From assembly GCF_013315695.1 (NCBI RefSeq), contig NZ_CP054353.1: a stretch of 64,000 nucleotides of DNA; one strand, written 5' to 3'. The notes beneath the pieces were generated by a model. It did no database searches and was not told where the DNA came from. It saw nothing but the letters and a program-made list of their open reading frames with translations. This stretch comes from Escherichia coli. GTDB taxonomy: Bacteria; Pseudomonadota; Gammaproteobacteria; Enterobacterales; Enterobacteriaceae. The position numbers and the translations under genes are program-made. Positions 15,938 through 64,000 of the stretch are shown piece by piece (position 1 is the stretch's first letter; each line of letters begins with the position of its first letter).

Positions 15938-17363
15938 TAATGCCGATCAGTTAAGGATCAGTTGACCGATCCAGTGGCTGTGTAAGAATCCGGAAACGCT
16001 CACTTGTTTCCGGATTTTTTTATGCACATTGGACAGGCTCTTGATCTGGTATCCCGTTACGATTCTCTGCGTAACCCACTGACTTCTCTGGGGGATTACC
16101 TCGACCCCGAACTCATCTCTCGTTGCCTTGCCGAATCAGGTACTGTAACGCTACGCAAGCGCCGTCTTCCCCTCGAAATGATGGTCTGGTGTATTGTTGG
16201 CATGGCGCTTGAGCGTAAAGAACCTCTTCACCAGATTGTGAATCGCCTGGACATCATGCTGCCGGGCAATCGCCCCTTCGTTGCCCCCAGTGCCGTTATT
16301 CAGGCCCGCCAGCGCCTGGGAAGTGAGGCTGTCCGCCGCGTGTTCACGAAAACAGCGCAGCTCTGGCATAACGCCACGCCGCATCCGCACTGGTGCGGCC
16401 TGACCCTGCTGGCCATCGATGGTGTGTTCTGGCGCACACCGGATACACCAGAGAACGATGCAGCCTTCCCCCGCCAGACACATGCCGGGAACCCGGCGCT
16501 CTACCCGCAGGTCAAAATGGTCTGCCAGATGGAACTGACCAGCCATCTGCTGACGGCTGCAGCCTTCGGCACGATGAAGAACAGCGAAAATGAGCTTGCT
16601 GAGCAACTTATAGAACAAACCGGCGATAACACTCTGACGTTAATGGATAAAGGTTATTACTCACTGGGACTGTTAAATGCCTGGAGCCTGGCGGGAGAAC
16701 ACCGCCACTGGATGATACCTCTCAGAAAGGGAGCGCAATATGAAGAGATCAGAAAACTGGGTAAAGGCGATCATCTGGTGAAGCTGAAAACCAGCCCGCA
16801 GGCACGAAAAAAGTGGCCGGGACTGGGAAATGAAGTGACAGCCCGCCTGCTGACCGTGACGCGCAAAGGAAAAGTCTGCCATCTGCTGACGTCGATGACG
16901 GACGCCATGCGCTTCCCCGGAGGAGAAATGGCGGATCTGTACAGTCATCGCTGGGAAATCGAACTGGGATACAGGGAGATAAAACAGACGATGCAACTGA
17001 GCAGGCTGACGCTGAGAAGTAAAAAACCGGAGCTTGTGGAGCAAGAGCTGTGGGGTGTCTTACTGGCTTATAATCTGGTGAGATATCAGATGATTAAAAT
17101 GGCGGAACATCTGAAAGGTTACTGGCCGAATCAACTGAGTTTCTCAGAATCATGCGGAATGGTGATGAGAATGCTGATGACATTGCAGGGCGCTTCACCG
17201 GGACGTATACCGGAGCTGATGCGCGATCTTGCAAGTATGGGACAACTTGTGAAATTACCGACAAGAAGGGAAAGGGCCTTCCCGAGAGTGGTAAAGGAGA
17301 GGCCCTGGAAATACCCCACAGCCCCGAAAAAGAGCCAGTCAGTTGCTTAACTGACTGGCATTA
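15938..17363 (+). mobile_element. IS4 insertion sequence, complete copy (1426 bp)
   Basis: Terminal inverted repeats taatgccgatcagttaag (left) and cttaactgactggcatta (right; 16 of 18 match when reverse-complemented); a single transposase ORF; flanked by an 11-bp direct repeat. Confidence 0.9.
16022..17350 (+). CDS. insG: IS4 transposase (DDE family)
   Basis: 442 aa from the ATG at 16022 ([14 protein letters not shown]...), recognised as IS4-family transposase; the supplied ORF starts 6 codons upstream. Confidence 0.85.
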
Positions 17364-17374
17364 CACTTCGGTGG
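17364..17374. repeat. Right copy of the 11-bp target-site duplication flanking IS4
   Basis: cacttcggtgg repeated directly after the IS4 right end, followed by cccttttttat, the remainder of the split accA terminator. Confidence 0.85.
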
Positions 17375-17437
17375 CCCTTTTTTATCGCCACGGTTTGAGC
17401 AGGCTATGATTAAGGAAGGATTTTCCAGGAGGAACAC

Positions 17438-19635: not shown

Positions 19636-20025
19636 ATGCTGGGTTTAAAACAGGTTCACCATATTGCGATTATTGCGACGGATTATGCGGTGAGCAAAGC
19701 GTTTTACTGCGATATTCTTGGTTTCACGCTGCAAAGCGAAGTCTATCGCGAAGCGCGCGATTCGTGGAAAGGGGATTTGGCGCTTAATGGGCAATATGTG
19801 ATTGAGCTTTTCTCATTTCCGTTCCCGCCGGAGCGCCCCAGCCGACCGGAAGCTTGCGGCCTGCGTCATCTGGCTTTTAGCGTTGATGATATCGATGCGG
19901 CAGTGGCGTACCTTGAAAGCCATAACGTGAAGTGTGAAGCCATCCGTGTCGATCCCTACACGCAAAAACGCTTCACGTTCTTTAACGATCCGGACGGACT
20001 GCCGTTGGAACTGTATGAGCAGTAA
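19636..20025 (+). CDS. yaeR: Glyoxalase/VOC family protein
   Basis: 129 aa from the internal ATG (MLGLKQVHH...); the supplied ORF starts 9 codons upstream. Confidence 0.85.
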   Translation: MLGLKQVHHIAIIATDYAVSKAFYCDILGFTLQSEVYREARDSWKGDLALNGQYVIELFSFPFPPERPSRPEACGLRHLAFSVDDIDAAVAYLESHNVKCEAIRVDPYTQKRFTFFNDPDGLPLELYEQ

Positions 20026-20089
20026 GGCTTGTCATCGCCATATTTGCCCGGTAACGTGCCGGGCATTGCTACTGTAAAATCGCATCATC

Positions 20090-21403
20090 ATGACACTCAC
20101 GCTCAATAGACAACTTCTCTCCTCACGCCAGATTCTGGTGGCCTTTAGCGGCGGGCTTGACTCCACCGTTCTGCTGCATCAGTTGGTGCAGTGGCGGACG
20201 GAAAATCCGGGCGTCACTCTACGCGCTATCCATGTGCATCACGGTTTAAGTGCCAATGCCGATGCCTGGGTTACGCATTGCGAAAACATCTGCCAACAGT
20301 TGCAGGTGCCGCTGGTGGTCGAGCGCGTGCAACTTGCGCAAGAAGGACTGGGCATTGAGGCCCAGGCGCGGCAGGTGCGTTATCAGGCATTTGCTCGTAC
20401 CCTGTTACCCGGTGAAGTGCTGGTCACCGCGCAACATCTCGACGATCAATGTGAAACCTTTCTGCTGGCGCTAAAACGCGGTAGCGGCCCTGCCGGGCTT
20501 TCGGCTATGGGGGAAGTTTCGGAGTTTGCCGGAACACAGCTTATCCGCCCGTTGCTCGCCCGCACGCGGGGGGAACTGGAGCAGTGGGCATTGGCGCATG
20601 GTTTACGCTGGATTGAAGACGAAAGTAATCAGGACGACTCATACGATCGTAACTTTCTGCGCCTGCGCGTAGTGCCGTTATTGCAGCAGCGTTGGCCGCA
20701 TTTTGCCGAAGCAACGGCCCGCAGCGCTGCACTTTGTGCTGAGCAAGAGAGCCTGCTGGATGAACTGCTGGCAGATGATTTAGCACACTGCCAAACGCCG
20801 CAGGGGACGCTGCAGATTGCGCCAATGCTGGCGATGAGTGATGCCCGTCGCGCGGCGATTATCCGCCGCTGGCTGGCAGGGCAGAATGCACCGATGCCTT
20901 CCCGCGACGCGTTGGTGCGGATCTGGCAGGAAGTGGCGCTGGCGCGAGAAGATGCTTCCCCCTGTTTACGTTTGGGGGCGTTTGAAATCCGCCGCTATCA
21001 ATCGCAACTGTGGTGGATTAAATCCGTCACTGGGCAAAGCGAAACCATTCTGCCGTGGCAGACGTGGCTACAACCGCTGGAATTACCGGCGGCGCTGGGA
21101 AGTGTACAGCTTACTGCAGGAGGCGATATTCGCCCTCCGCGTGCAGACGAAGCGGTCAGCGTGCGTTTCAAAGCGCCTGGATTGCTACATATTGTCGGGC
21201 GCAATGGTGGGCGTAAGTTAAAGAAAATCTGGCAAGAGTTAGGCGTTCCGCCGTGGCTACGTGACACCACGCCACTGCTGTTTTATGGCGAAACGCTGAT
21301 TGCGGCGGCAGGGGTATTTGTGACGCAAGAAGGTGTGGCTGAAGGTGAGAATGGCATAAGTTTTGTCTGGCAGAAAACGCTTAGTCAAGTGAAAGCCGGA
21401 TAA
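20090..21403 (+). CDS. tilS: tRNA(Ile)-lysidine synthetase
   Basis: 437-aa ORF with N-terminal SGGxDS PP-loop ATPase motif. Confidence 0.92.
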
Positions 21404-33345: not shown

Positions 33346-36249
<2,904 letters not shown>

Positions 36250-36343
36250 ACAACGCCGAAGATGTTTTGGCGGAAGAGACATCGATAAGTAAGCTTGATA
36301 ACAGATTAAATCAGAACGCAGAAGTGGTCTGATAAACAGAATT

Positions 36344-36463
36344 TGCCTGGCGGCCTTAGCGCGGTGGTCCCACCTGACCCCATGCCGAACTCAGAAGTGA
36401 AACGCCGTAGCGCCGATGGTAGTGTGGGGTCTCCCCATGCGAGAGTAGGGAACTGCCAGGCAT
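36344..36463 (+). rRNA. rrfH: 5S ribosomal RNA
   Basis: tgcctggcggcc...gggaactgccaggcat; 120 nt. Confidence 0.98.
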
Positions 36464-36515
36464 CAAATTAAGCAGTAAGCCGGTCATAAAACCGGTGGTT
36501 GTAAAAGAATTCGGT

Positions 36516-36592
36516 GGAGCGGTAGTTCAGTCGGTTAGAATACCTGCCTGTCACGCAGGGGGGCGCGGGTTCGAGTCCCGTCCGTTCCGCCA
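36516..36592 (+). tRNA. aspU: tRNA-Asp (anticodon GTC), rrn-distal; variant copy
   Basis: 77 nt ending CCA; identical to the copy at 45517..45593 except G at 36563 where the other copy has T. Confidence 0.95.
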
Positions 36593-36604
36593 CTTATTAA
36601 GAAG

Positions 36605-36632
36605 CCTCGAGTTAACGCTCGAGGTTTTTTTT
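36605..36632 (+). terminator. Rho-independent terminator of the rrn operon
   Basis: cctcgag / ctcgagg stem with 6-nt loop, followed by a run of 8 T. Confidence 0.85.
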
Positions 36633-37272
36633 CGTCTATATTTCTATTATTGCTTAAATCGCAAAAATCCTCTGCGTTTTACGCCCTTTTTCCGCAACAT
36701 TCTAAAGCCCATAATCACTTCAGTTAACGAAAATAGCATTAAAAGAGGCATATTATGGCTATCCCTGCATTTGGTTTAGGTACTTTCCGTCTGAAAGACG
36801 ACGTTGTTATTTCATCTGTGAAAACGGCGCTAGAACTTGGTTATCGCGCAATTGATACCGCACAAATCTATGATAACGAAGCCGCAGTAGGTCAGGCGAT
36901 TGCAGAAAGTGGCGTGCCGCGTCATGAACTCTACATCACCACTAAAATCTGGATTGAAAATCTCAACAAAGCTAAATTGATCCCGAGTCTGAAAGAGAGC
37001 CTGCAAAAATTGCGTACCGATTATGTTGATCTGACGCTAATCCACTGGCCGTCACCAAACGATGAAGTCTCTGTTGAAGAGTTTATGCAGGCGCTGCTGG
37101 AAGCCAAAAAACATGGGCTGACGCGTGAGATCGGTATTTCCAACTTCACGATCCCATTGATGGAAAAAGCGATTGCTGCTGTTGGCGCTGAAAACATCGC
37201 TACTAACCAGATTGAACTCTCTCCTTATCTGCAAAACCGTAAAGTGGTCGCTTGGGCTAAACAGCACGGCAT

Positions 37273-37281
37273 CCATATTAC
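37273..37281. repeat. Left copy of the 9-bp target-site duplication flanking IS1 (ccatattac)
   Basis: Identical 9-mer directly before and after the IS1 termini. Confidence 0.9.
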
Positions 37282-37336
37282 GGTGATGCTGCCAACTTAC
37301 TGATTTAGTGTATGATGGTGTTTTTGAGGTGCTCCA

Positions 37337-37612
37337 GTGGCTTCTGTTTCTATCAGCTGTCCCTCCTGTTCAGCTACTGACGGGGTGGTGCGTAACGGCA
37401 AAAGCACCGCCGGACATCAGCGCTATCTCTGCTCTCACTGCCGTAAAACATGGCAACTGCAGTTCACTTACACCGCTTCTCAACCCGGTACGCACCAGAA
37501 AATCATTGATATGGCCATGAATGGCGTTGGATGCCGGGCAACAGCCCGCATTATGGGCGTTGGCCTCAACACGATTTTACGTCACTTAAAAAACTCAGGC
37601 CGCAGTCGGTAA
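37337..37612 (+). CDS. insA: IS1 InsA (transposition inhibitor; N-terminal part of InsAB' transposase)
   Basis: 91-aa ORF with zinc-finger cysteines (CPSC...CSHC). Confidence 0.92.
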
Positions 37613-38034
37613 CCTCGCGCATACAGCCGGGCAGTGACGTCATCGTCTGCGCGGAAATGGACGAACAGTGGGGCTATGTCGGGGCTAAATCGCGCCAGCG
37701 CTGGCTGTTTTACGCGTATGACAGGCTCCGGAAGACGGTTGTTGCGCACGTATTCGGTGAACGCACTATGGCGACGCTGGGGCGTCTTATGAGCCTGCTG
37801 TCACCCTTTGACGTGGTGATATGGATGACGGATGGCTGGCCGCTGTATGAATCCCGCCTGAAGGGAAAGCTGCACGTAATCAGCAAGCGATATACGCAGC
37901 GAATTGAGCGGCATAACCTGAATCTGAGGCAGCACCTGGCACGGCTGGGACGGAAGTCGCTGTCGTTCTCAAAATCGGTGGAGCTGCATGACAAAGTCAT
38001 CGGGCATTATCTGAACATAAAACACTATCAATAA
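37531..38034 (+). CDS. insB: IS1 InsB reading frame (expressed as InsAB' by -1 frameshift at the ttaaaaaac motif, 37588..37594)
   Basis: 167-aa ORF in the -1 frame relative to insA, overlapping its 3-prime end; slippery A6C sequence present. Confidence 0.88.
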
Positions 38035-38049
38035 GTTGGAGTCATTACC

Positions 38050-38058
38050 CCATATTAC
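38050..38058. repeat. Right copy of the 9-bp target-site duplication flanking IS1
   Basis: ccatattac repeated immediately after the IS1 right end. Confidence 0.9.
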
Positions 38059-38331
38059 TTCCTATATGACGCTGGCGTATGGTAAGGCCCTGAAAGATGA
38101 GGTTATTGCTCGTATCGCAGCTAAACACAATGCGACTCCGGCACAAGTGATTCTGGCGTGGGCTATGGGGGAAGGTTACTCAGTAATTCCTTCTTCTACT
38201 AAACGTAAAAACCTGGAAAGTAATCTTAAGGCACAAAATTTACAGCTTGATGCCGAAGATAAAAAAGCGATCGCCGCACTGGATTGCAACGACCGCCTGG
38301 TTAGCCCGGAAGGTCTGGCTCCTGAATGGGA

Positions 38332-39246
38332 TTAAGCCTCTCTGACAGCTCCTCCGGGAGCTGTTTTTACATGCTCGCTAAGGAAATCGATAAAAGCCCG
38401 GATGCGTGTACTTACCGCACGGTCGCTGTAATATACGGCACTGAATGGCATTTCCACTGGCAATACTTTATCTGCCATTAACTCCACCAATTCTCCGCGA
38501 GCGATTTCTCTGTCGATCATGTAGTCGGACAAACACGCAATCCCGTTGCCACTCAGGCAAAGCTGTTTCAGTGTTTCCCCACTATTGGATGACAAACCGT
38601 ACTTCACCTCATGTAATTGTCCATCGCTACAGGCTATCGGCCAGGTATTGAGGGAAGCGGGTTCAGTGAATCCCAGGCAAACATGTTGCTTTAAATCGTC
38701 GATCGTTTCTGGCTTCCCGTAGCGGGAAATATAATCGGGGGAGGCGATAATTTTTCGATAACTGTTAAATAACGGCCTGGCACGTAAGCTGGAATCCGTT
38801 AACGTACCGGCGCGTATCGCGACATCCACTTTTCTTTCGATCAAATTAATAATTGTTTCGGAGGAGACTAGTGATAAAGTGACTTCCGGATAGCGTTCAC
38901 GGAAAGGCTTAATCAACGGCATCAGAAAGTGCAGCACCACTGGAGTTGCGGCATCGATGCGCAACAGTCCACGCGGTGTATTACGCGTCTCCATAATTTC
39001 TGATTCTGCCGCTGCCATCTCCTGCAAAATTGACTGTACGCGACGAAAATAACGCTCGCCTTCTTCCGTCAGGCTAAGTTGCCGCGTGGTCCGATTAAGC
39101 AGGCTAACGCCAAGTTTCATCTCCAGCTTTTTCACCGCCCGGCTTACCGCTGAGTTTGCTTGCCCTAATTGTTCCGCTGCCCGGCTAAAGCTGCCGCTTT
39201 CGACGACCGAAACAAAAATGGCGAGTTCTTCCGACGTGGCTTTCAT
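38332..39246 (-). CDS. yafC: LysR-family transcriptional regulator
   Basis: 304-aa ORF with N-terminal helix-turn-helix and LysR substrate-binding domain; convergent with dkgB. Confidence 0.9.
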
Positions 39247-39435
39247 TTTTGCTCCTGTTGCAAAATAGATGAGATATTTTGAATTTATTTGTCATTAAAC
39301 CATCAGGATGCGTGATATGTCATCCGATTTAATGTTCTCAATAATGAGCAAATTTCTGACCGGTGTAAGCACTTGCTTACATGACAATATACAATTGCTC
39401 GTTGAAAGAGTGAGCTAAAATCCCTATAACAGTAG

Positions 39436-40287
<852 letters not shown>

Positions 40288-45516: not shown

Positions 45517-45593
45517 GGAGCGGTAGTTCAGTCGGTTAGAATACCTGCCTGTCACGCAGGGGGTCGCGGGTTCGAGTCCCGTCCGTTCCGCCA
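45517..45593 (+). tRNA. aspV: tRNA-Asp (anticodon GTC)
   Basis: ggagcggtagttcagtcggttagaatacctgcctgtcacgcagggggtcgcgggttcgagtcccgtccgttccgcca. Confidence 0.97.
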
Positions 45594-54326: not shown

Positions 54327-54436
54327 TGATGCCGGATGCGCTTACGCTTATCCAGCCTACGAATCGTGCCTTAACAGTAGGACGGATAAGGCGTTTACGC
54401 CGCATCCGGCAGTTGTGCACCGGTGCCGGATACCTA
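54327..54436. repeat. REP/BIME palindromic elements
   Basis: tgccggatgcgcttacgcttatccagcctac ... gtaggacggataaggcgtttacgccgcatccggc. Confidence 0.8.
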
Positions 54437-56527
54437 CATCAACGCCCCCATAATCTTCAACTCCAGCTCGTCCGGCACTTCGTTATACGACAGCACATGC
54501 AGCCCCGGTGCAAACAATCTCGCATAGCGCGCCAGCAAAGGGCGCAACTGCGGTGGCACCAGCAGCACAGGGTCTTTCCCCGCCGCTTTCATCTGCTCCT
54601 TCACCTGCGGCATCGTGTTCTGGAACTGGTTAAGCATATTCGGGTCCACCGGCACGCTGTCGAGCATCACTTTGCCGCCCTGTTGCGCCTGATTCACTAC
54701 GTTGGTCAGCAGATTTTCCAGCTCATTATTCAGCGTATACACCGTCAGCTCCTGTTTGCGAACGAACGGATGGGTAATGCTGCGCCGCAGCGCCAGGCGC
54801 ACATCGGCCGCCAGCAGAATATGATCTTTAGTCACCGCACTACTGGCGACCAGCACGGTGGCGATGGTGACGATATCGCGCAGGGAAACGCCTTCGGTCA
54901 GCAGCGTCCGGTACACTTTCAGCAACTGGCTGTAGTTGAGCGCCGCGCTCAAATCTTCCGCCAGGCGCGGTGCCATCGACGACAGGCGGTTATGCAACTG
55001 CGTGATGTCATCATAGTTAAATAATTCAGGAATATAGCTGCGCACAATCTTATTCACATGGGTGGCAATCACGCTGGCGCTGTCGATCACCTGATACCCC
55101 ATATTCAGCGCCTTCGCTTTCTGCGCAGGCTGGATCCAGGTGACCGGCATCCCATATGCCGGGTCATTCCCCAGTACGCCGTCAATCTCGCCGTAGGTTT
55201 CGCTGGAGGGCAACGCCATCAGTTTATCTGCCGGAATATCCGCTTCATCGGCCTTAATGCCGTTGATGAATATGGCGTACTGGCTGGGCTTGAGGCGGAA
55301 GTTTTCCCGAATACGGATCTCCGGCAGCAGCACGCCGTTGCCGTCGGAAATCACCTGCCGCACGCCGCGAATCCGCTGGGTGAGCGGGTTACCTTGGGCT
55401 TTATCGACCAGCGCCACCAGCTTGTAGCCGAGACTTAAGCTGATAGGCTCGATCAGCGGAATGGTTTCCCAACTGACCTGTTGCTCGCTGGTTTCGGTGA
55501 TGGTGCGGGTCAGTGTTTCGAGGCTTTTCTCTTCCGCCTCCGCCGCCTGCGGGCGTTTGCTCATCCGCCAGCCGGTAAAGCCAAGCAGGGCGCTGAACAG
55601 CAAAAATGGCAGATGCGGCATCCCCGGCACCACCGCCAGCACAAACATGATCCCGGTGGCGGTGTAGAGCACCGACGGGCTTGCCAGCAGCTGGTGGCGC
55701 ACGTCATGGGCGATATCGCCGTTGTCGCTGACGCGGGTGACGATAATTGCCGCCGCGGTGGAGAGCAGCAGGGACGGGATCTGCGCCACCAGGCCGTCGC
55801 CGATGGTCATCAGCACATATTGCTGGAAGGCGGCGTCGGCGCTCAGGTTGTATTTGAAGATGCCGATACAGACGCCGCCGATCAGGTTGATCGCCAGAAT
55901 CATCATCCCGGCGATGGCATCGCCGCGCACAAACTTCGATGCCCCGTCCATCGCGCCGTAGAAATCGGCCTCGCTGGCAACATCTTTACGCCGTGTTTGC
56001 GCCTGCGCCTGGTTGATCAATCCGGCGTTAAGATCGGCGTCAATCGCCATCTGCTTGCCGGGCATCGCGTCCAGGGTAAAGCGGGCAGAAACCTCGGAAA
56101 TACGCTCGGCCCCTTTGGTGACGACGATAAAGTTGATGATCATCAGGATGATAAACACCACAAAGCCGACGACAAAGTTGCCGCCAATCACCACCTGACC
56201 AAATGACTCAATCACCTTACCCGCCGCGCCTGCGCCGAGATGCCCGTGCAGCAGCACCACGCGCGTAGAAGCAACGTTAAGCGTCAGGCGCATTAAAGTG
56301 GTGATCAGCAAAATGGTCGGGAACAGGCTGAATTCCAGCGGTCGTTTCGCCGACACCGCCACCAGCAGCACCATCACCGCCAGCACAATGTTGAAGGTGA
56401 ACAGAATATCCAGCAGCGCAGGCGGCAGCGGCAGAATAACCATCGCCAGAATACAAAGTATAACCAGCGGTACGCCGAGATTACCGCCGCGCAGCAGCGC
56501 GAGGAACGATTTAGTTGTTTTCGCCAT
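54434..56527 (-). CDS. lfhA: Flagellar-type export apparatus protein, FlhA homologue (second flagellar system)
   Basis: 697-aa ORF with N-terminal polytopic membrane domain and FlhA-like cytoplasmic domain; intact. Confidence 0.85.
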   Translation of the reverse strand: MAKTTKSFLALLRGGNLGVPLVILCILAMVILPLPPALLDILFTFNIVLAVMVLLVAVSAKRPLEFSLFPTILLITTLMRLTLNVASTRVVLLHGHLGAGAAGKVIESFGQVVIGGNFVVGFVVFIILMIINFIVVTKGAERISEVSARFTLDAMPGKQMAIDADLNAGLINQAQAQTRRKDVASEADFYGAMDGASKFVRGDAIAGMMILAINLIGGVCIGIFKYNLSADAAFQQYVLMTIGDGLVAQIPSLLLSTAAAIIVTRVSDNGDIAHDVRHQLLASPSVLYTATGIMFVLAVVPGMPHLPFLLFSALLGFTGWRMSKRPQAAEAEEKSLETLTRTITETSEQQVSWETIPLIEPISLSLGYKLVALVDKAQGNPLTQRIRGVRQVISDGNGVLLPEIRIRENFRLKPSQYAIFINGIKADEADIPADKLMALPSSETYGEIDGVLGNDPAYGMPVTWIQPAQKAKALNMGYQVIDSASVIATHVNKIVRSYIPELFNYDDITQLHNRLSSMAPRLAEDLSAALNYSQLLKVYRTLLTEGVSLRDIVTIATVLVASSAVTKDHILLAADVRLALRRSITHPFVRKQELTVYTLNNELENLLTNVVNQAQQGGKVMLDSVPVDPNMLNQFQNTMPQVKEQMKAAGKDPVLLVPPQLRPLLARYARLFAPGLHVLSYNEVPDELELKIMGALM

Positions 56528-57650
56528 CCAGTTTAAGCACCTCTTTGGGAATGGAAATATGTCTGTTCAGGGCCGGGCGCGGCTGTGCGCCCTCGCGCCA
56601 GTGTTTCATTTGCAGGACGTAGGTCAGAACGTGGGCGATAGCCCGGTAAAGCTGAAACGGAATTTGTTGGTTCACCTGCGTGGTGTAGTAAACCGAGCGC
56701 GCCAGCCGCGGGAACTCGACCACTTCCACCTGATTCTCAGCGGCGACCTGGCGAATATAGAGGGCGATTTCATCGGTGCCTTTTGCCACCACAAACGGCG
56801 CGGCGGCGCGAGACTGGTCATACTGCAACGCCACGGCGTAGTGGGTCGGGTTGGTGATCACCACGTTGGCTTTCGGCACCACTTTGCGGATTTGCCCCAT
56901 CGCCAGCTGCCGTTGCAGCCGTCGCACGCGCGCCTTCACTTCCGGCTTGCCTTCCTGATTTTTGTACTCTTCTTTCAGCTCCTGCTTGGTCATCTTCAGC
57001 CCTTTGGTAAACAGGGCTTTCGCCAGCGGCACGTCGATAAGCGCAAAGAAGATAAACAGGATGACAAAGTTGCGCATCACGCTGGCGTAGAGCGACAAAC
57101 CCTCATTCATCGCCAGTTTGAACGGCAGCGCTTGCAGGCCGAGGAAGGCGGCAAAGTTATTGCGCAGGCTAATCCACAGCATCACCAGCACCACCACCGA
57201 CTTCGCCGTCATCTTTCCCGTTTCCGCCAGATGTTCACTGGAAAACAGCCGCCCAATCCCTTTTAACGGGCTAATTTTGCTGAAATCCGGGAGGATTTTT
57301 TTCGGCAGAAACAGCCAGCCGCCAGGCACCAGCGAGGAGAGCAGCGCAGCGGCGGGCATCGGCAGCAAGGTAAGAATAAACTTGCCGAGAATTAACAGGT
57401 GATGGCGCAGAAACTGGCCGATCACATCCGGGTTATTAATCTCCTGCGCGTACTGATGCACGCTGATAAAACTCTCACGCACAAAATCGGCATACCACGG
57501 GAAGCTGCTGGAGATCACCACAAACGCCGCAAACAGGCTCGCCGCCAGCCCCATATCCTTCGAGCGCGGCAGTTGCCCCTCTTCACGCGCTTTACGCAGC
57601 TTTTGCGCCGAGGGTTTCTCTGTTTTTTCTTCGCTGCTGCTATCCGCCAT
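56511..57650 (-). CDS. lfhB: Flagellar-type export apparatus protein, FlhB homologue
   Basis: 379-aa ORF with an FlhB-like N-terminus (MADSSSEEKTEKPSAQKLRKAREEGQ...). Confidence 0.85.
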   Translation of the reverse strand: MADSSSEEKTEKPSAQKLRKAREEGQLPRSKDMGLAASLFAAFVVISSSFPWYADFVRESFISVHQYAQEINNPDVIGQFLRHHLLILGKFILTLLPMPAAALLSSLVPGGWLFLPKKILPDFSKISPLKGIGRLFSSEHLAETGKMTAKSVVVLVMLWISLRNNFAAFLGLQALPFKLAMNEGLSLYASVMRNFVILFIFFALIDVPLAKALFTKGLKMTKQELKEEYKNQEGKPEVKARVRRLQRQLAMGQIRKVVPKANVVITNPTHYAVALQYDQSRAAAPFVVAKGTDEIALYIRQVAAENQVEVVEFPRLARSVYYTTQVNQQIPFQLYRAIAHVLTYVLQMKHWREGAQPRPALNRHISIPKEVLKLDGENN

Positions 57651-58422
57651 AGTGACCTTTCAGCGCGTCGAGTTGCTGCAACACAAAATTCGCCAGATGC
57701 AGATAGTGATCCGGCAGGTTGTAGAGCAGGGTGGCGAAGCAAACCAGCCCCGCCAGCATGTTGATGGGAAAGCCGAGCGAAAAAAGGTTCAGCGGCGGCG
57801 CAATGCGGTTAAGCAGGCCAAAGCAGCCCTGCACAATCAGCATGATAAAAGTGGTCGGCAGCGCCAGCAGTGATGCGGACGCCAGCACCCAGCTAAAGGC
57901 CAGCGCGATGGTGCGCAGGGGTTGCGGATGCAGCGCGTTGCCAATCGGCCAGTAGGTGAAGCCCTTATACAGCACGCTTACCAGCAGCAGATGCCCGTCC
58001 ATGGCAAAAAACAGCAGGATCGCGTAGACGTTAATTAACTCTGCCAGCACGGTTGTTGATGCGCCGCTGCTCGGGGCGTTCATCACCGCCATGCTCATCC
58101 CCATATTGAACGAGAGAATTTGCCCGGCCAGTTGCAGCGCCAGAAACAGAAACTGAAACATCAGCCCGAACAACATGCCCCATAATATTTGCTCCACCGT
58201 CAGGATCAGGCTATTGAGCGATAGCAGGTCGTGGGGAATGGGATGGGGGATCAACGGCGTGATGATGATCGCCAGCGCCAGCGACAATATAATCCGCACG
58301 CGCACGGTCAGGGCGCTGTTATCCAGCACCGGCACATAGCGCAGAAACGCCATAATGCGCACGAAGGGGAACCACAGCCCCAGCACCAGATCCATCAGTT
58401 GCGTAACGTCGCTTGTGCGCAT
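57640..58422 (-). CDS. lfiR: Flagellar-type export apparatus protein, FliR homologue
   Basis: About 260-aa polytopic membrane ORF from the internal Met; the supplied ORF extends to 58473. Confidence 0.8.
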   Translation of the reverse strand: MRTSDVTQLMDLVLGLWFPFVRIMAFLRYVPVLDNSALTVRVRIILSLALAIIITPLIPHPIPHDLLSLNSLILTVEQILWGMLFGLMFQFLFLALQLAGQILSFNMGMSMAVMNAPSSGASTTVLAELINVYAILLFFAMDGHLLLVSVLYKGFTYWPIGNALHPQPLRTIALAFSWVLASASLLALPTTFIMLIVQGCFGLLNRIAPPLNLFSLGFPINMLAGLVCFATLLYNLPDHYLHLANFVLQQLDALKGHYGG

Positions 58423-58423
58423 C

Positions 58424-58696
58424 TTAATGCACCAGCAGGGCGGCCTGACTAAACAGATGAATGCAGAGATCATGCAACTGGATAATCATCCATTTGCCGC
58501 ACACCCCCAGCACCACCAGCGTGACAATCAGCCTTGGCAAAAAGCTCAGGGTCTGTTCGTTAATCTGCGTCACCGCCTGGAACACGCTCACCAGCAGGCC
58601 GACCAGCAGGCTTGGCACCACCAGTACCGAAACCAGCAAAATCACTACTTTAATGCCGCTGGCGACAATGTCGGCGGCTACGTCTACGGTCAACAT
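58424..58696 (-). CDS. lfiQ: Flagellar-type export apparatus protein, FliQ homologue
   Basis: 90-aa two-helix membrane ORF. Confidence 0.82.
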   Translation of the reverse strand: MLTVDVAADIVASGIKVVILLVSVLVVPSLLVGLLVSVFQAVTQINEQTLSFLPRLIVTLVVLGVCGKWMIIQLHDLCIHLFSQAALLVH

Positions 58697-58698
58697 AA

Positions 58699-59451
58699 TC
58701 AGCCCAGCCCCAGCCCGCGAATGCTGGTGGTGAGCGTGCCGATGGTCAGCGACCAGCCGTCAATCAGCACAAACAGCATCAGTTTAAAGGGCAGCGAAAC
58801 AATCAGCGGCGACAGCATCATCATCCCCATCGCCATCAGTACGCTGGCGACAATCAGGTCGATAACCAGAAACGGGATGTAAATCATAAAGCCAATCTGG
58901 AAAGCGGTTTTCAGCTCGCTCAGTACATAGGCGGGCACCACGATGGAGAGATCCTGGTCGGCGGCATTGCCCTTCGCGCCGCCGATGGTCATGATTTGCG
59001 CCATCGCTTTTTTGTCGGTCTGCGCCAGCATAAAGCGTTTTAGCGGCGTCGCGGCGGTGCTTAACGCATCGGTCAGGGTAATCTGATCGTTTTCAAACGG
59101 CACTACCGCGTGGTCGTAAATATTGAGCCAGATGGGGCGCATTACCAGCAGGGTGAGTGAGAGCGCAATACCTATCAGAATGCGGTTCGGCGGCGTTTGT
59201 TGCAGCCCCAGCGCCTGGCGCAGCAGCGACAGCACGATAATAAAGCGCGTAAAGCAGGTCATCATCAGCACCATCGTCGGCAGCAAACCGACGAGGGTCA
59301 TCAGAATCAGTACCTGAATTTTGACGCTGTACTCCTGAGTGTTGCCGTGGGTCACCACGTTAAGTAGCGCAATATCGCCACCCTGGGCCAACGCCAGCGG
59401 CGCAAGCGCCAGCAGCCCAAGGCCCAGCGCCAGTTGAGTGCGGCGTTTCAT
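58699..59451 (-). CDS. lfiP: Flagellar-type export apparatus protein, FliP homologue
   Basis: 250-aa ORF with signal peptide and conserved FliP C-terminal region. Confidence 0.85.
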   Translation of the reverse strand: MKRRTQLALGLGLLALAPLALAQGGDIALLNVVTHGNTQEYSVKIQVLILMTLVGLLPTMVLMMTCFTRFIIVLSLLRQALGLQQTPPNRILIGIALSLTLLVMRPIWLNIYDHAVVPFENDQITLTDALSTAATPLKRFMLAQTDKKAMAQIMTIGGAKGNAADQDLSIVVPAYVLSELKTAFQIGFMIYIPFLVIDLIVASVLMAMGMMMLSPLIVSLPFKLMLFVLIDGWSLTIGTLTTSIRGLGLG

Positions 59452-59819
59452 GGTGCCAGGTCGTTGATATCGCGGGTGTTAAACTCCAGCACGCGCAGGC
59501 CGTACTTCTCGTTGACCACCACCACTTCCGCTTTGCCCAGCAGGATATTGTTCACTTTAATATCCAGCGGCTCCCCGGCGAGTTTATCCAGCTCAATCAC
59601 CGTGTCGTCGTCGATGTTAAGCAGGTCGGCTAACATAATTTCCACCGACGACACTTCCAGCGTTAAGGTCACCGGAATGCGTTTCAGCAGCGTCATCGAG
59701 TCGGAAAAGCGGTCTTCCAGGCGGGTGACCAGCGTTTCGGCGTCGGCGGATTTCGTGACAGGCGCAACTTCATCGGCGAGGCCAAAATCCCCGGCTAAAA
59801 TATCGTCTTGTTTACTCAT
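59448..59819 (-). CDS. lfiN: Flagellar switch protein, FliN homologue
   Basis: About 124 aa from the internal Met, with C-terminal SpoA-like domain; the supplied ORF extends to 59879 and would overlap lfiM by 68 bp. Confidence 0.78.
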   Translation of the reverse strand: MSKQDDILAGDFGLADEVAPVTKSADAETLVTRLEDRFSDSMTLLKRIPVTLTLEVSSVEIMLADLLNIDDDTVIELDKLAGEPLDIKVNNILLGKAEVVVVNEKYGLRVLEFNTRDINDLAP

Positions 59820-60663
59820 GGCTATTCTCATTCTTGCCCGCCAGCTCCGACAAAAACAGTTTGTCTTTGTCTTCCACAATCAGGGCGCTAAATAATTCAG
59901 ATTGCCCAATCGCCACCGGGAACGTTTCTCCCAGCGAGATGGGTAAAATATCCCCGGCTTTTATCTGCGCCAGATCGGCGACATTCATCGATAGCTCGGC
60001 GATTTTGACGTTCAGGGTCAGCGGCAGGGAGCGGATGATTTCTTTAATCAGGGCCGGTTTATTAACGGATTTCGCCACCTGCTGCGGTTTACTGTGCTCG
60101 CTGTGGCGGATCAGATTCAAAATAAAATCGGTGTGGGCGTCGTCGAGCAAAATACGAAAACTGCTCTCTTCATCGCCCGCAAGGGTAAAGGTTAATTGAT
60201 ACGCCCAGTGGGTAATCACCGTGCTGCTGTCCAGTTTTAATTTCAGCGCAATACCGGAGGTTTGCAGATTAAAGATCAGCGTGCAGATATCCAGCGCGAG
60301 TCGGTTCTTTAACCGCGTTTCGGTTTTGGTCGGCAGCCCGTTATGCGCTTTCGCCTCTTCAAGAGAGGACTCCAGACCATAAAAATTGCCCAGCAGCATT
60401 AACAGCAAGGAGCGATCAATATCAAACGCCAGATGCCCGACCTGGGAAACCATCAGTTCGGCGTTTTTATTAATAATATCCATTTCGCAGCCAATCTTTT
60501 TTAGGGTGATATTGCTGCGATGCTTTTTGAGAAAGTAGCTGCCAAGATGCGAATCAATCACGTCAAAATTCCCCGTAAACAGGGTCGGCAGGCGATGGTA
60601 GGGGCGTCCGAGCCGATTACCTTCTAATTTAAAGATGCCTGGCGTTTTACTGTACTTCAGCAT
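59812..60663 (-). CDS. lfiM: Flagellar switch protein, FliM homologue
   Basis: 283-aa ORF at the head of the minus-strand lfiMNPQR-lfhBA block. Confidence 0.75.
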   Translation of the reverse strand: MLKYSKTPGIFKLEGNRLGRPYHRLPTLFTGNFDVIDSHLGSYFLKKHRSNITLKKIGCEMDIINKNAELMVSQVGHLAFDIDRSLLLMLLGNFYGLESSLEEAKAHNGLPTKTETRLKNRLALDICTLIFNLQTSGIALKLKLDSSTVITHWAYQLTFTLAGDEESSFRILLDDAHTDFILNLIRHSEHSKPQQVAKSVNKPALIKEIIRSLPLTLNVKIAELSMNVADLAQIKAGDILPISLGETFPVAIGQSELFSALIVEDKDKLFLSELAGKNENSHE

Positions 60664-60842
60664 GGCTTACTTTCTCTGCTGTAATGGTATGGGCGTTGTT
60701 GTGCACGCAAATCCGGCAGTGACACAAGGTGAGGTATTAAATAGAGGGGGCGTGAAAGGGGCAAATTATTAATAGGGTGAAAAAATAATTAAATTATTAA
60801 AGGGCGAGGTATCGGGCATCGTCATAAAACATTGCACGAATT

Positions 60843-60925
60843 GTAGGCCTGATAAGAGGCGCAGCGTCGCATCAGGCATCGGTGCACAATTGCCGGATGG
60901 CGGCGTAAACGCCTTATCCGGCCTA
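60843..60925. repeat. REP/BIME palindromic elements in the lfiM-lafK divergent intergenic region
   Basis: gtaggcctgataagaggcgcagcgtcgcatcaggc and gccggatggcggcgtaaacgccttatccggcctac. Confidence 0.8.
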
Positions 60926-61050
60926 CGGTTCTAACTCATTGTTTATCAACAAATAATATTTTTATTATCGTTTAATTCGAACTTGTTAATCCCGCCGGTG
61001 ATACGCTTCAGAACATCCTGTTTTCTGTCGCTACTTATATCGTTCACCCT

Positions 61051-62037
61051 ATGTCTGAACTTATTGCAACTGCCGCTTCCAGCATTAACGCTTTTACTCT
61101 GGCAAAGCGTGTCGCCGCCTTTAACGTGCCGGTGCTCATTCAGGGCGAAACCGGCGCGGGCAAAGAATGCGTGGCGAAATATATTCACACCGTAGCCTTT
61201 GGTGAAAATGAAAGCGCACCCTATGTCGGCGTGAACTGCGCGGCGATCCCGGAAAATATGCTGGAATCCACGCTATTTGGCTATGACAAAGGCGCATTTA
61301 CCGGCGCAATTGCCAGCGTGCCAGGAAAAATGGAACTGGCAAATAACGGCTCCTTATTGCTCGATGAAATTGGTGAAATGCCGCTGGCGCTACAGGCCAA
61401 AATATTACGCGTGTTGCAGGAACAACAGGTTGAGCGATTAGGCAGCAACCGACAAATCAAACTCAATTTTCGCCTGATTGCCTGCACCAATAAAAACCTG
61501 GAGCAGGAAGTTGCCGCCGGACGTTTTCGTGAAGATCTCTATTATCGTCTGGCGGTTATCCCTATTACCATGCCGCCACTGCGTGAACGCCTGAACGATA
61601 TTATTCCGCTGGCGGAGTCATTTATTAAAAAATACTCCACGGTGCTGGTGAAAAATATCACCCTGTCCGAATCCACCCGCCGTGCGCTGCTTAATTACCG
61701 CTGGCCCGGTAACGTGCGCCAACTGGAAAACGCCATTCAGCGGGGAATGATTTTAAATCGCGACGGCGTAATTTACCCGGATGCATTAGGCCTGCTGGAA
61801 ACGGACGTTGCTGACCACAGCGAACTGCAATGGCCTGTTCAGCCCGCCGTCCACATTGCCGAAACCAGCGATTTGGGCCAGCACGGACGAAGCGCGCAAT
61901 ATCAATATATCGCCGACCTGATGCGTAAATATCAGGGCAACCGCAGCAAAATCGCCGACCTGTTAGGCATTACCCCGCGCGCACTGCGCTATCGACTGGC
62001 CTCCATGCGCAAGCAAGGTATCGAAGTTTTCTCCTGA
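61051..62037 (+). CDS. lafK: Sigma54-dependent transcriptional activator (AAA+ and HTH domains only)
   Basis: 328-aa ORF; Walker A GETGAGKE at about residue 32, GAFTGA sigma54-contact motif, C-terminal HTH; no receiver or other N-terminal domain. Confidence 0.8.
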   Translation: MSELIATAASSINAFTLAKRVAAFNVPVLIQGETGAGKECVAKYIHTVAFGENESAPYVGVNCAAIPENMLESTLFGYDKGAFTGAIASVPGKMELANNGSLLLDEIGEMPLALQAKILRVLQEQQVERLGSNRQIKLNFRLIACTNKNLEQEVAAGRFREDLYYRLAVIPITMPPLRERLNDIIPLAESFIKKYSTVLVKNITLSESTRRALLNYRWPGNVRQLENAIQRGMILNRDGVIYPDALGLLETDVADHSELQWPVQPAVHIAETSDLGQHGRSAQYQYIADLMRKYQGNRSKIADLLGITPRALRYRLASMRKQGIEVFS

Positions 62038-62051
62038 CCCGGAAGTTAAAA

Positions 62052-62393
62052 ATGAGCATTACCACAATCAACAGCACCATGCAGGCGCAAATCATGCAGG
62101 ACGTGCAGCGGATGCAGGCCAACGCCCAGGCACCGGTGCTGCCCGCCATGACCTTCAGTTCCACCGACCCGGACGTTTCGTTTAACCGCATTATGAGCGG
62201 TGCGCTCGGTCATGTTGACCAGTTCCAGCAGGTGGCGGAGCAGCAGCAAACGGCTGTCGACACGGGCAAAAGTGATGACCTTGCCGGGGCGATGATCGCC
62301 AGCCAGCAGGCGTCGCTCTCTTTCTCCGCGCTGGTGCAGGTGCGCAACAAAATCGCCACCGGATTTAACGATCTGATGAGTATGTCGATCTAA
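62052..62393 (+). CDS. lfiE: Flagellar hook-basal body protein, FliE homologue
   Basis: 113-aa ORF with conserved FliE C-terminus (...VQVRNKIATGFNDLMSMSI). Confidence 0.8.
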   Translation: MSITTINSTMQAQIMQDVQRMQANAQAPVLPAMTFSSTDPDVSFNRIMSGALGHVDQFQQVAEQQQTAVDTGKSDDLAGAMIASQQASLSFSALVQVRNKIATGFNDLMSMSI

Positions 62394-62397
62394 CCCT

Positions 62398-64000
62398 ATG
62401 AATGCACAAATAAAGAAGTTAACCCAGGCGTTTCCGGCGTTTCGACTGCGTCTTGCAGATAACAAACGCTGGGCATTGATGGCGGGAGTGGGGCTTGCCG
62501 TTGCGGCGACGGCGATTATCGTCAGCGTACTGTGGACCGGTAATCGCGGCTACGTCTCGCTCTACGGACGCCAGGAAAATCTGCCCGTGTCGCAGATTGT
62601 CACCGTGCTGGATGGCGAAAAGCTCAGCTACCGCATCGACCCGCAAAGCGGGCAGATTCTGGTGCCGGAAGATGAACTGTCGAAAACGCGCATGACCCTT
62701 GCTGCCAAAGGCGTGCAGGCGATCTTGCCCAGCGGCTACGAGCTGATGGACAAAGACGAAGTGCTCGGCAGCAGCCAGTTCGTGCAGAACGTGCGCTACA
62801 AACGCAGCCTCGAAGGGGAGCTGGCGCAGAGCATTATGTCGCTGGACGCGGTGGAGAGCGCGCGGGTGCATCTGGCGCTCAACGAAGAGAGCTCGTTTGT
62901 GGTCAGCGATGAGCCGCAAAACAGCGCCTCGGTGGTGGTGCGTCTGCATTACGGCGCGAAGCTGAATATGGACCAGGTGAACGCCATTGTGCATCTGGTT
63001 TCCGGCAGCATTCCGGGGCTGCACGCCAGCAAAGTTAGCGTCGTCGATCAGGCGGGAAATCTGCTGACCGACGGCATTGGCGCGGGCGAAGCGGTTTCAG
63101 CCGCTACCCGTAAACGCGATCAGATCCTCAAAGATATTCAGGACAAAACCCGCGCCAGCGTGGCGAACGTGCTGGATTCGCTGGTCGGCAGCGGGAATTA
63201 CCGCGTCAGCGTCATGCCGGATCTCGACCTCAGTAATATCGATGAAACTCAGGAACACTACGGCGACGCGCCGAAAATCAACCGCGAAGAAAACGTGCTG
63301 GACAGCGATACCAATCAGGTGGCGATGGGTGTGCCCGGTTCGCTTAGCAACCGCCCGCCGGTTGCACCTAATCAGGTTACTAACGGCGCGATGCCCGCCG
63401 ACGAAAATCGCTCGCCGGAAGCCCTTTCGAAACACAGCGAAAGCAAGCGCGATTACTCTTACGACCGCAGCGTCCAGCATATTCAGCATCCCAGCTTTAC
63501 GGTGAAACGCCTCAACGTGGCGGTGGTGCTCAATCAAAACGCTCCGGCGCTGAAAAACTGGAAGCCGGAGCAGACCACGCAGCTTACCGCGCTGCTGAAC
63601 AATGCCGCCGGGATCGACGCGCAACGTGGAGACAATCTCACCTTATCGCTGCTTAACTTTGTCCCGCAGGCGGTGCCGGTCGAACCAATTATTCCGTTGT
63701 GGAAAGATGACAGCGTGCTGGCCTGGGTGCGGCTGATTGGCTGCGGCCTGCTGGCGCTGTTGTTGCTGTTCTTTGTGGTGCGCCCGGTAATGAAACGACT
63801 GACGGCGGTACGTGCGCCGGTTATCACACCAGAACCGGAAGCTGTCAGCGAACCGTGGATTGCCATGCCGGAAGAGGAACGCAAAAACGTCGATCTGCCG
63901 TCGCTGCCCGGCGATGACAGCCTGCCGTCCCAGAGTTCCGGCCTCGAAGTAAAACTCGAGTTCCTGCAAAAACTGGCCATGAGCGACACCGATCGCGTAG
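62398..64000 (+). CDS. lfiF: Flagellar MS-ring protein, FliF homologue (3-prime end cut by window edge)
   Basis: Open frame from the ATG at 62398 to the window end (over 530 codons) with N-terminal and late transmembrane segments typical of FliF; absent from the supplied ORF track, presumably because no stop codon lies inside the window. Confidence 0.8.
   Translation, partial: MNAQIKKLTQAFPAFRLRLADNKRWALMAGVGLAVAATAIIVSVLWTGNRGYVSLYGRQENLPVSQIVTVLDGEKLSYRIDPQSGQILVPEDELSKTRMTLAAKGVQAILPSGYELMDKDEVLGSSQFVQNVRYKRSLEGELAQSIMSLDAVESARVHLALNEESSFVVSDEPQNSASVVVRLHYGAKLNMDQVNAIVHLVSGSIPGLHASKVSVVDQAGNLLTDGIGAGEAVSAATRKRDQILKDIQDKTRASVANVLDSLVGSGNYRVSVMPDLDLSNIDETQEHYGDAPKINREENVLDSDTNQVAMGVPGSLSNRPPVAPNQVTNGAMPADENRSPEALSKHSESKRDYSYDRSVQHIQHPSFTVKRLNVAVVLNQNAPALKNWKPEQTTQLTALLNNAAGIDAQRGDNLTLSLLNFVPQAVPVEPIIPLWKDDSVLAWVRLIGCGLLALLLLFFVVRPVMKRLTAVRAPVITPEPEAVSEPWIAMPEEERKNVDLPSLPGDDSLPSQSSGLEVKLEFLQKLAMSDTDRV

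Follow-up and report, generated by a model that had tools for sequence, protein, structure and literature searches.

A single IS1A-type insertion very probably split dkgB at codon 176 in the ancestor of one Escherichia coli clone

In a 64-kb stretch of E. coli DNA, hereafter called the window, the gene dkgB (yafB) for the aldo-keto reductase 2,5-didehydrogluconate/methylglyoxal reductase B, located behind an rrnH-type operon, is broken in two. The questions raised by this locus are what broke the gene, whether the break is its only lesion, and what it may mean for the enzyme, for the neighboring gene, and for the strains carrying it. A first-pass annotation made from the sequence alone had proposed an IS1 insertion, and all of its structural statements proved correct. 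The features framing the locus are as follows:

36346..36461, plus strand: 5S rRNA, the end of the rrnH-type operon and the upstream context (Rfam RF00001, 93 bits; rrf in the near-identical genome MSB1_4I)
36516..36592, plus strand: tRNA-Asp in the aspU position, directly upstream of dkgB (ARAGORN anticodon GTC; Rfam tRNA, 67.7 bits)
36755..37281, plus strand: dkgB 5' fragment, codons 1-175 and the first two bases of codon 176 (ORF list; NCBIfam DkgB profile 1-178)
36755..37303, plus strand: the ORF actually encoded, 182 aa, from ATG at 36755 to TGA at 37301-37303 within IS1 (ORF list)
38057..38335, plus strand: dkgB 3' fragment, codons 176-267 and the TAA stop, 92 codons in the same frame (NCBIfam DkgB profile 176-267)
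38332..39246, minus strand: yafC, intact, encoding a LysR-type regulator; it is convergent to dkgB and shares 4 bp with the end of that gene (ORF list; WP_000648583.1)

The gene order, from rrnH, aspU, dkgB, the convergent yafC and yafD to mltD, is that of K-12, CE10, MS 21-1, and AF14, the broken gene lying in the conserved chromosomal position of dkgB. The Rfam scan of 36000-39600 returned only the end of the 23S rRNA, the 5S rRNA, and the tRNA, with no regulatory RNA at the locus.

The reading frame of dkgB is interrupted by 777 bp, i.e., by an IS1 element together with one copy of a 9-bp repeat. In agreement with the first-pass annotation, which placed the break after codon 175, it falls inside codon 176 (Thr), with 175 complete codons upstream; the C-terminal 92 codons continue in the same frame (codons 176-267 at 38057-38335), just as it had read them. 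The inserted element and its flanks comprise the following parts:

37273..37281, no strand assigned: left copy of the 9-bp target-site duplication CCATATTAC (sequence)
37282..38049, plus strand: complete IS1 (IS1A-type), 768 bp (length and inverted repeats; comparison with K-12 IS1A)
37282..37304, plus strand: IRL, the left terminal inverted repeat of IS1 (18/23 matches to the right end in reverse complement)
37337..37612, plus strand: insA, 91 aa, GTG start (ORF list; NCBIfam IS1/IS1595 zinc-binding domain)
37531..38034, plus strand: insB frame (ORF list)
37588..37594, plus strand: A6C programmed -1 frameshift motif (sequence; open frame after a -1 slip)
37337..38034, plus strand: region coding for the InsAB' transposase, which has 232 aa once the -1 frameshift has occurred (NCBIfam NF033558)
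38027..38049, minus strand: IRR, the right terminal inverted repeat of IS1 (18/23 match with the left end)
38050..38058, no strand assigned: right copy of the 9-bp target-site duplication CCATATTAC (sequence)

The element's length of about 768 bp, the imperfect inverted repeats of about 23 bp, the two frames joined at A6C, the match to the family model, and the 9-bp duplication are all hallmarks of the IS1 family, and insA and insB are read in the same direction as dkgB. Frame translation with a -1 slip at A6C yields an open InsAB' of 232 aa, scoring 245 bits against the IS1 family transposase model NCBIfam NF033558 (cutoff 100) over profile positions 1-199 of 199; the complete IS1 with insA, insB, and an A6C motif expected from the first reading was thus recovered. 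The assignment to the IS1A isoform follows from near identity to the reference copy of K-12 MG1655 (insA1/insB1, 19796-20563 of NC_000913.3), which shares the 768-bp length, insA, A6C, insB, the inverted repeats, and a 9-bp target duplication, but resides at another genomic site. The two copies are identical at 767 of 768 bases, the sole difference being T>G at element position 444 (37725 in the window). This substitution presumably replaces Ser with Arg in InsB/InsAB' (YDSLRK to YDRLRK). As far as can be read from its sequence, the window copy is intact in all its features. PGAP designates the identical copies in the genomes MSB1_4I and AF3 as “IS1-like element IS1A family transposase” with a “programmed frameshift” noted.

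IS1 is documented as a 768-bp element which depends on InsAB' for its transposition and generates 9-bp direct repeats (PMC10294622). In the window, CCATATTAC is present exactly twice, each copy abutting one end of IS1; the direct repeat, which covers the codons for H-I-T as had been noticed at first reading, is perfect and cannot be extended by a single base on either side. A perfect match of 9-mers at two fixed positions is expected by chance with a frequency of 4^-9 = 3.8e-6, and a given 9-mer is expected about 0.24 times per 64 kb.

Removal of IS1 and one copy of the repeat restores an ORF of 804 nt encoding 267 aa. It is identical at 804/804 nucleotides to the intact dkgB of MS 21-1 and AF14, the closest non-carriers (DkgB, or YafB, WP_000997026.1), and collinear with K-12 dkgB (b0207), from which it differs by 12 nt and 4 aa without a single indel (98.5% identity). 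The restored protein scores 529 bits against the curated DkgB equivalog model NF008377 (cutoff 327) at positions 1-267 of 267, to which the N-terminal and C-terminal fragments contribute positions 1-178 and 176-267, respectively; aligned with intact DkgB, the two fragments are collinear with one aldo-keto reductase. Over 45 kb, the only gap in the alignments of MS 21-1 and AF14 with the window is 37282-38049. Since the fragments are collinear with the profile and the restored ORF is identical to the intact allele, the gene carries no lesion other than the insertion, and this part of the initial interpretation stands. In contrast to the intact gene of MS 21-1, AF14, and K-12, the window gene is interrupted at codon 176 and has no continuous ORF from which the complete (alpha/beta)8 barrel could form, its product ending after 182 aa. 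On sequence grounds, the window dkgB is a pseudogene, i.e., a non-functional member of its family.

The same data bear on the possibility that a rearrangement (a deletion, an inversion, or recombination between two IS1 copies, for example) took place at the IS1, so that its flanks would not represent a clean split of one gene. IS-mediated rearrangements are frequent in IS1-rich genomes, and an IS4 also entered the region in the same clade. Still, if two IS1 copies from separate insertions had recombined, the 9-mers on the two sides would differ, whereas here they are identical; the flanks rejoin to an ORF identical to the intact allele, and the gene order from rrnH to mltD is unchanged in comparison with K-12, CE10, MS 21-1, and AF14. 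The probability of a rearrangement is accordingly considered to be vanishingly small.

The distribution of the junctions among genomes provides further evidence. Among 5,426 complete RefSeq E. coli genomes, the same junctions were found in two, MSB1_4I (NZ_LR898874.1, Australia) and AF3 (NZ_OZ547117.1, UK), at 100% identity; the junctions, the IS1, and the neighbors of this dkgB::IS1A pseudogene do not differ from those of the window. In both genomes, PGAP annotates “dkgB, incomplete, missing C-terminus”, IS1A, and “aldo/keto reductase, incomplete, missing N-terminus”. The event is thus already known from annotation in public records, and a full-text literature search for an IS1 insertion in dkgB found no paper. 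MS 21-1, AF14, and OZ546911 are non-carriers. An index of public assemblies lists the exact 182-aa product in 181 blocks. In ten loci inspected from this index, including ENA and JGI metagenome contigs and one N-free contig of 5.16 Mb, the left junction was identical in 10/10 and the right junction also in 9/10. The carriers are geographically widespread, coming from Australia and the UK as well as from draft genomes and metagenomes of US and European origin. No clade member examined lacks the insertion, which represents a fixed marker of one clone related to phylogroup-F-like strains. In several draft scaffolds, the interior of IS1 is filled with Ns. An unrelated intergenic IS4 is fixed nearby in the same clade.

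A repeat-induced misjoin which placed an IS1 copy into an intact dkgB during assembly would be conceivable in this lineage, where IS1 occupies at least 40 places per chromosome (MSB1_4I, AF3) and several draft scaffolds have Ns within the element. Such a misjoin would not, however, provide each end of IS1 precisely with its copy of a perfect 9-bp target duplication, and the Australian and the UK genome, assembled to completion independently, share identical junctions, which recur in ten further loci. An artefact of this kind is therefore regarded as extremely improbable. It is nearly certain, in our judgment, that a single IS1A-type element transposed into dkgB at codon 176 in the ancestor of one E. 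coli clone; no observation speaks against this structural reading.

According to the proposed scenario, IS1 transposition, in the manner known for this element, would have made a staggered 9-bp cut at the target upon the entry of the element into codon 176 of dkgB (yafB) in the ancestor of the clone, and the repair would have duplicated CCATATTAC, converting dkgB into two pseudogene halves. The 5' half would still be transcribed from its own promoter and give rise to the 182-aa product, which consists of 176 native residues and six more (VMLPTY) read from the left end of IS1; the TGA at 37301-37303 agrees with the earlier statement that the N-terminal fragment terminates within IS1. The residues D34, Y39, K64, and H97, which correspond to the Asp-Tyr-Lys-His catalytic tetrad of aldo-keto reductases (AKRs), all reside in the N-terminal fragment, in conserved motifs aligned with solved AKRs. 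The truncated product would thus keep the tetrad, but its (alpha/beta)8 barrel would be without the two final beta-strands and helices. The 3' fragment harbors a 13-residue stretch (residues 219-231) that lines up with “fpksvrrerleenl” in 2,5-DKG reductase A (1A80), so that the product would also be devoid of the motif that pairs with the NADPH 2'-phosphate-binding segment in the alignment. Because the barrel lacks its final quarter and, with it, the region that aligns with the cofactor-binding motif, the 182-aa product is expected to be inactive and the clone to be a dkgB null; the sequence gives strong reason to believe that DkgB activity is lost in the carriers. Precise excision between the two 9-bp repeats may constitute a route to reversion.

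Retention of the function by non-covalent complementation of the barrel fragments, or by frequent precise excision of IS1, has certain points in its favor. Some (alpha/beta)8-barrel enzymes are known to allow complementation between fragments; an in-frame ORF starting from a TTG in the right end of IS1 (38036-38335, 99 aa) spans the whole C-terminal fragment, and the ORF is otherwise undamaged, so that excision between the 9-bp repeats would restore the wild type. At the nucleotide level, the consensus scan of 36590-39500 found no outward-facing promoter-like site at the right end of IS1, its total of three promoter-like sites (one of them at 37289-37316, in IRL) is at the chance level of 4.0 +/- 1.8, and no Shine-Dalgarno-like sequence is apparent before the TTG on reading the sequence. 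The insertion is fixed in the clade members examined, and neither the window nor any of the 12 further carrier sequences (the ten loci, MSB1_4I, and AF3) is a revertant. Some carriers later acquired mutations in the 3' fragment, e.g., 38225 C>T in L018, which fits the drift of an unconstrained pseudogene. Retained function is considered very unlikely, and loss of DkgB activity remains the preferred reading.

The effect of this loss is expected to be mild, since other AKRs and the glyoxalase pathway remain in the cell: E. coli possesses nine AKRs, five of which are active on glyoxal or methylglyoxal (PMC5297802). Thus, the insertion is probably neutral or nearly so. That it became fixed in a clone sampled so widely could be explained equally well by hitch-hiking or by weak selection.

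Polar or promoter effects of IS1 on yafC, raised as a possibility in the first-pass annotation, found no support. The gene is convergent, so classical polarity from IS1 cannot apply; no outward promoter-like site was seen at the right end of the element within the scanned 36590-39500, and the YafC accession, WP_000648583.1, is the same in carriers and non-carriers. The terminator scan of the same interval returned five terminator-like sites against 3.2 +/- 1.8 expected, i.e., no better than chance.

Some observations might be taken as a sign that selection favored the insertion in the bacterium from which this human-associated clone descends, either because the loss of an NADPH-consuming aldehyde reductase is helpful in the host, or because the altered or terminated convergent transcription into yafC changed, e.g., raised, the level of YafC. 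The clone in which the allele became fixed has a wide geographic range, and dkgB is independently damaged in about 2% of complete genomes. Furthermore, the region upstream of dkgB is a target of adaptive rearrangements under glyoxal stress, though toward overexpression, so laboratory selection favors more DkgB, not less (PMC5297802). Against selection, this is a single, clonally inherited event found in 2/5,426 complete genomes, with no recurrence at the site; YafC is unchanged, and the fixed nearby IS4, along with at least 40 IS1 places per chromosome, fits an IS expansion with drift. Selection for the insertion is hence deemed very unlikely, and a neutral or nearly neutral knockout is preferred.

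The other dkgB lesions, found in about 2% of complete E. coli genomes, include, e.g., an ISEc1-associated truncation and an internal deletion. In OkiPb01694, only the last 171 nt of dkgB are left, adjoining the ISEc1 transposase gene, and TUM12355 carries the internal deletion. The same gene is inactivated as in the window, but by an irreversible truncation or deletion instead of a clean insertion, and in other lineages. Together with dkgB::IS1, these lesions show that natural populations can do without DkgB. Overall, dkgB::IS1 can be viewed as a textbook case of IS1 knocking out an aldo-keto reductase that is redundant and non-essential, and it is of little biological weight. The junction (...GGCATCCATATTAC|GGTGATGCTGCC...) is of practical use as a stable, PCR-testable marker of one E. 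coli clone known from several continents. The locus is also an annotation trap: the N-terminal fragment alone scores 350 bits against the DkgB model, above the cutoff of 327, and a simple pipeline would therefore report dkgB as present.

The window represents a third genome of the MSB1_4I/AF3 clade, differing from each of these genomes at 5-6 positions in 39,270 comparable bases. Comparison with related genomes, proposed earlier as a means to date the insertion, resolved its clonal distribution but not its age: the 5-9 differences among carriers in 39 kb, which include homopolymer indels, possibly assembly errors, are too few. Two substitutions, both A:T>C:G, are private to the window, G at 36563 (T in all clade relatives, within tRNA-Asp) and C at 39468, and neither is shared by any of the 12 carrier sequences compared. 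A mutator phenotype was considered, since at each of the nine positions where a substitution separates the two, the window has G/C and MSB1_4I has A/T, and since dnaQ and dnaE both lie in the window. It was rejected: polarised with AF3, MS 21-1, AF14, CE10, and K-12, six of them are derived in MSB1_4I, in keeping with the usual GC>AT bias, and only two are private to the window. The DnaQ accession is the same in MSB1_4I, AF3, MS 21-1, AF14, and CE10, and that of DnaE is the same in MSB1_4I and AF3.

The interruption of the aldo-keto reductase gene dkgB is an ordinary IS1 knockout, which already carries a pseudogene annotation in RefSeq and marks one clone of E. coli; the observation and the core interpretation of the first-pass annotation are correct. 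The features of the element, and the neighboring gene facing the broken frame, are as follows:

37337-37612, insA, 91 aa, intact (ORF listing)
37531-38034, insB frame, intact (ORF listing)
37588-37594, A6C motif
38332-39246, minus strand, yafC, convergent with dkgB and overlapping its end by 4 bp

Direct reading of 36500-38700 places the canonical left end of IS1 at 37282 (GGTGATGCTGCCAACTTACTGAT...) and its right end at 38049 (...ATCAATAAGTTGGAGTCATTACC), the length being exactly 768 bp, with 18 of 23 positions shared between the terminal inverted repeats (script). After a -1 slip at A6C, InsAB' is open over 232 aa and, against the curated model for IS1 transposases (cutoff 100), reaches 245 bits. 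In the 64-kb window there are exactly two copies of the 9-mer CCATATTAC (37273-37281 and 38050-38058), each directly adjoining an end of the element, and the match does not continue for another base on either side. For two fixed positions, the chance probability of a perfect 9-mer match is 3.8e-6, and the complete IS1 with a perfect 9-bp duplication, as initially described, is borne out. IS1a has been characterized as a 768-bp, InsAB'-dependent element that generates a 9-bp direct repeat when it inserts (PMC10294622), and all the defining IS1 features accessible to a sequence test are present.

The element is the only IS1 copy in the window and is identical to IS1A of K-12 MG1655 at 767/768 positions. 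The sole difference, T>G at 37725 (IS1 position 444), yields Arg in InsB/InsAB' (..YDRLRK..), presumably in place of Ser in K-12 InsB; it is common to MSB1_4I and AF3, two further carriers of the insertion, where PGAP assigns the transposase the accession WP_103215986.1. The chromosomes of MSB1_4I and AF3 each harbor at least 40 IS1 places (the median is 10 per genome); this suggests an IS1 expansion in their lineage, with the dkgB copy as one member.

The dkgB frame starts with the ATG at 36755 and runs over 182 codons to the TGA at 37301-37303 (direct reading and ORF listing). In silico removal of IS1 and one repeat copy restores an 804-nt ORF of 267 codons, which aligns with K-12 dkgB (b0207) without gaps, with 12 nucleotide and 4 amino-acid differences, and is identical over 804/804 bases to the intact dkgB (WP_000997026.1) of MS 21-1 and AF14, the two closest non-carriers. 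Over positions 1-267 of the NCBIfam equivalog model for DkgB (cutoff 327), the restored protein obtains 529 bits. With profile positions 1-178 matched by the N-terminal fragment and 176-267 by the C-terminal one, the fragments are collinear and abutting, as expected of the single aldo-keto reductase proposed at first pass. The flanking 9-mers match, the ORF is restored perfectly and gene order is conserved, which excludes a rearrangement mediated by IS1.

The break lies inside codon 176 (Thr). Because its upstream copy reads ACG, with the G supplied by IS1, the 182-aa product keeps 176 native residues followed by VMLPTY. Retention of DkgB function carries a probability that we would place very low. 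All four positions of the catalytic tetrad (D34, Y39, K64 and H97) belong to the N-terminal fragment, and this fragment alone (36755-37303) still scores 350 bits, above the curated cutoff of 327, which constitutes an annotation trap: in a presence/absence call, dkgB would pass as present if judged by HMM score alone. When aligned with the solved relatives 3UP8, 1A80 and 1MZR, the protein is broken at the strand corresponding to 'KIESW' in 2,5-DKG reductase A, and the 13-residue stretch 219-231, aligned with 'fpksvrrerleenl' of 1A80, is in the detached C-terminal fragment. Judging from AKR structure, we take this stretch to bind the 2'-phosphate of NADPH and the missing part to comprise the last two strand-helix units of the barrel; hence, a stable, active enzyme is unlikely to arise from the 182-aa product. 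No outward promoter-like site for the C-terminal fragment was found by a promoter scan, whose overall result was at chance level. Loss of DkgB should have a mild phenotype; the near-identical record of MSB1_4I has an intact gloB ~5 kb downstream.

The polar effect on yafC envisaged earlier cannot operate in the usual sense, since this gene is convergent with dkgB. The sequence likewise lends no support to altered convergent transcription into yafC, and the YafC protein accession is the same in carriers and non-carriers.

Searches with 300-bp queries across each junction in 5,426 complete RefSeq E. coli genomes returned both junctions at 100% identity in the same two genomes, MSB1_4I, from a rectal swab in Australia, and AF3, from a blood culture in the UK, and the insertion at this dkgB site is not recurrent among complete RefSeq genomes. 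In both, PGAP lists 'dkgB, incomplete', 'IS1-like element IS1A family transposase (programmed frameshift)' and 'aldo/keto reductase, incomplete'. The window is collinear with them over all 64 kb at 99.98-99.99% identity and identical to neither. With the restored empty site and 4.4 kb of flank as the query, the next closest genomes, MS 21-1, AF14 and OZ546911 (99.9%), have an uninterrupted dkgB, followed at 99.1-99.3% by Rb-50, CE10, IAI39 and SMS-3-5, the last three of which we take to be phylogroup F strains. At 39,270 comparable positions outside rrn and IS sequences, there are 5-9 differences between carriers and 18-30 between carriers and non-carriers; seven derived SNPs are common to all three carriers versus MS 21-1 and AF14, an eighth site (20301) is common to the window and MSB1_4I only, and 37282-38049 is the only gap in the two non-carriers.

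The exact 182-aa product was detected in 181 index blocks of public assemblies. Ten loci were retrieved: one is on a metagenome contig from ENA, one on a metagenome contig from JGI, and the others are in draft and complete genomes from NCBI. The left junction is identical in 10/10 and the right in 9/10, the tenth contig ending inside IS1. Given the target duplication and the many independent assemblies, an assembly artefact can be excluded. The identical junctions and the clonal distribution therefore indicate that the insertion happened once and is fixed in one widely sampled clone; it arose after the split from MS 21-1/AF14 and before the common ancestor of the clone, and the data do not suffice to date it. 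Since then, a few carriers have acquired substitutions in IS1 or the 3' fragment, in line with a pseudogene. A full-text search of the searchable library found no discussion of this insertion.

A second clade-specific IS insertion, an IS4 at ~15,950-17,400 between accA and ldcC (transposase 16004-17350, plus strand), is present in the window, MSB1_4I and AF3 and absent from MS 21-1 and AF14, in which 99 bp separate accA from ldcC.

When the gene halves were searched separately, ~100 of the 5,426 complete genomes (~2%) lacked an intact dkgB, the 5' half being absent or the 3' half only partial. Two examples were inspected individually: OkiPb01694 (NZ_AP042564.1) retains only the last 171 nt, adjoining an ISEc1 transposase gene and Rhs genes, and TUM12355 (NZ_CP134376.1) has an internal deletion leaving a 354-nt 3' fragment. 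Both lesions are independent of the IS1 insertion. Thus, two lesions of different kinds and ~100 affected genomes point to repeated loss by different routes, which fits a dispensable gene; that the IS1 insertion was adaptively selected seems a slim prospect.

Window-private changes are confined to 36563 and 39468, both A:T>C:G transversions and too few for a mutational signature. The former is a G in the tRNA-Asp at the aspU position (36516-36592), at variable-loop position U47 by our own numbering; the base is T in K-12, CE10, MS 21-1, AF14, MSB1_4I, AF3 and ten other members of the clade, and T is also kept in the second tRNA-Asp of the window (45517-45593). Because 110 of 5,428 complete-genome records, from unrelated strains, contain the same G variant at 100% identity, it is either a real polymorphism that recurs or an error made systematically in the consensus. 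The latter, A>C in the yafC-yafD intergenic region 19 nt upstream of the yafD GTG at 39487, is absent from every relative examined. The substitutions derived in MSB1_4I over the 64 kb are all G/C>A/T (6/6, at 20270, 34826, 36264, 59571, 61390 and 62127), and the two in the rrn operon (34826 and 36264) could reflect gene conversion or assembly error. An apparent mutator signal in the window strain vanished once substitutions versus MSB1_4I were polarized with outgroups.

The window also harbors an apparently intact cluster of Flag-2 (lateral flagellar) genes at ~54,430-64,000, including flhA, flhB, fliR, fliQ, fliP, fliM/N, a sigma-54 activator, fliE, fliF and fliG, whereas CE10 has at this site only an flhA fragment adjoining lafU.
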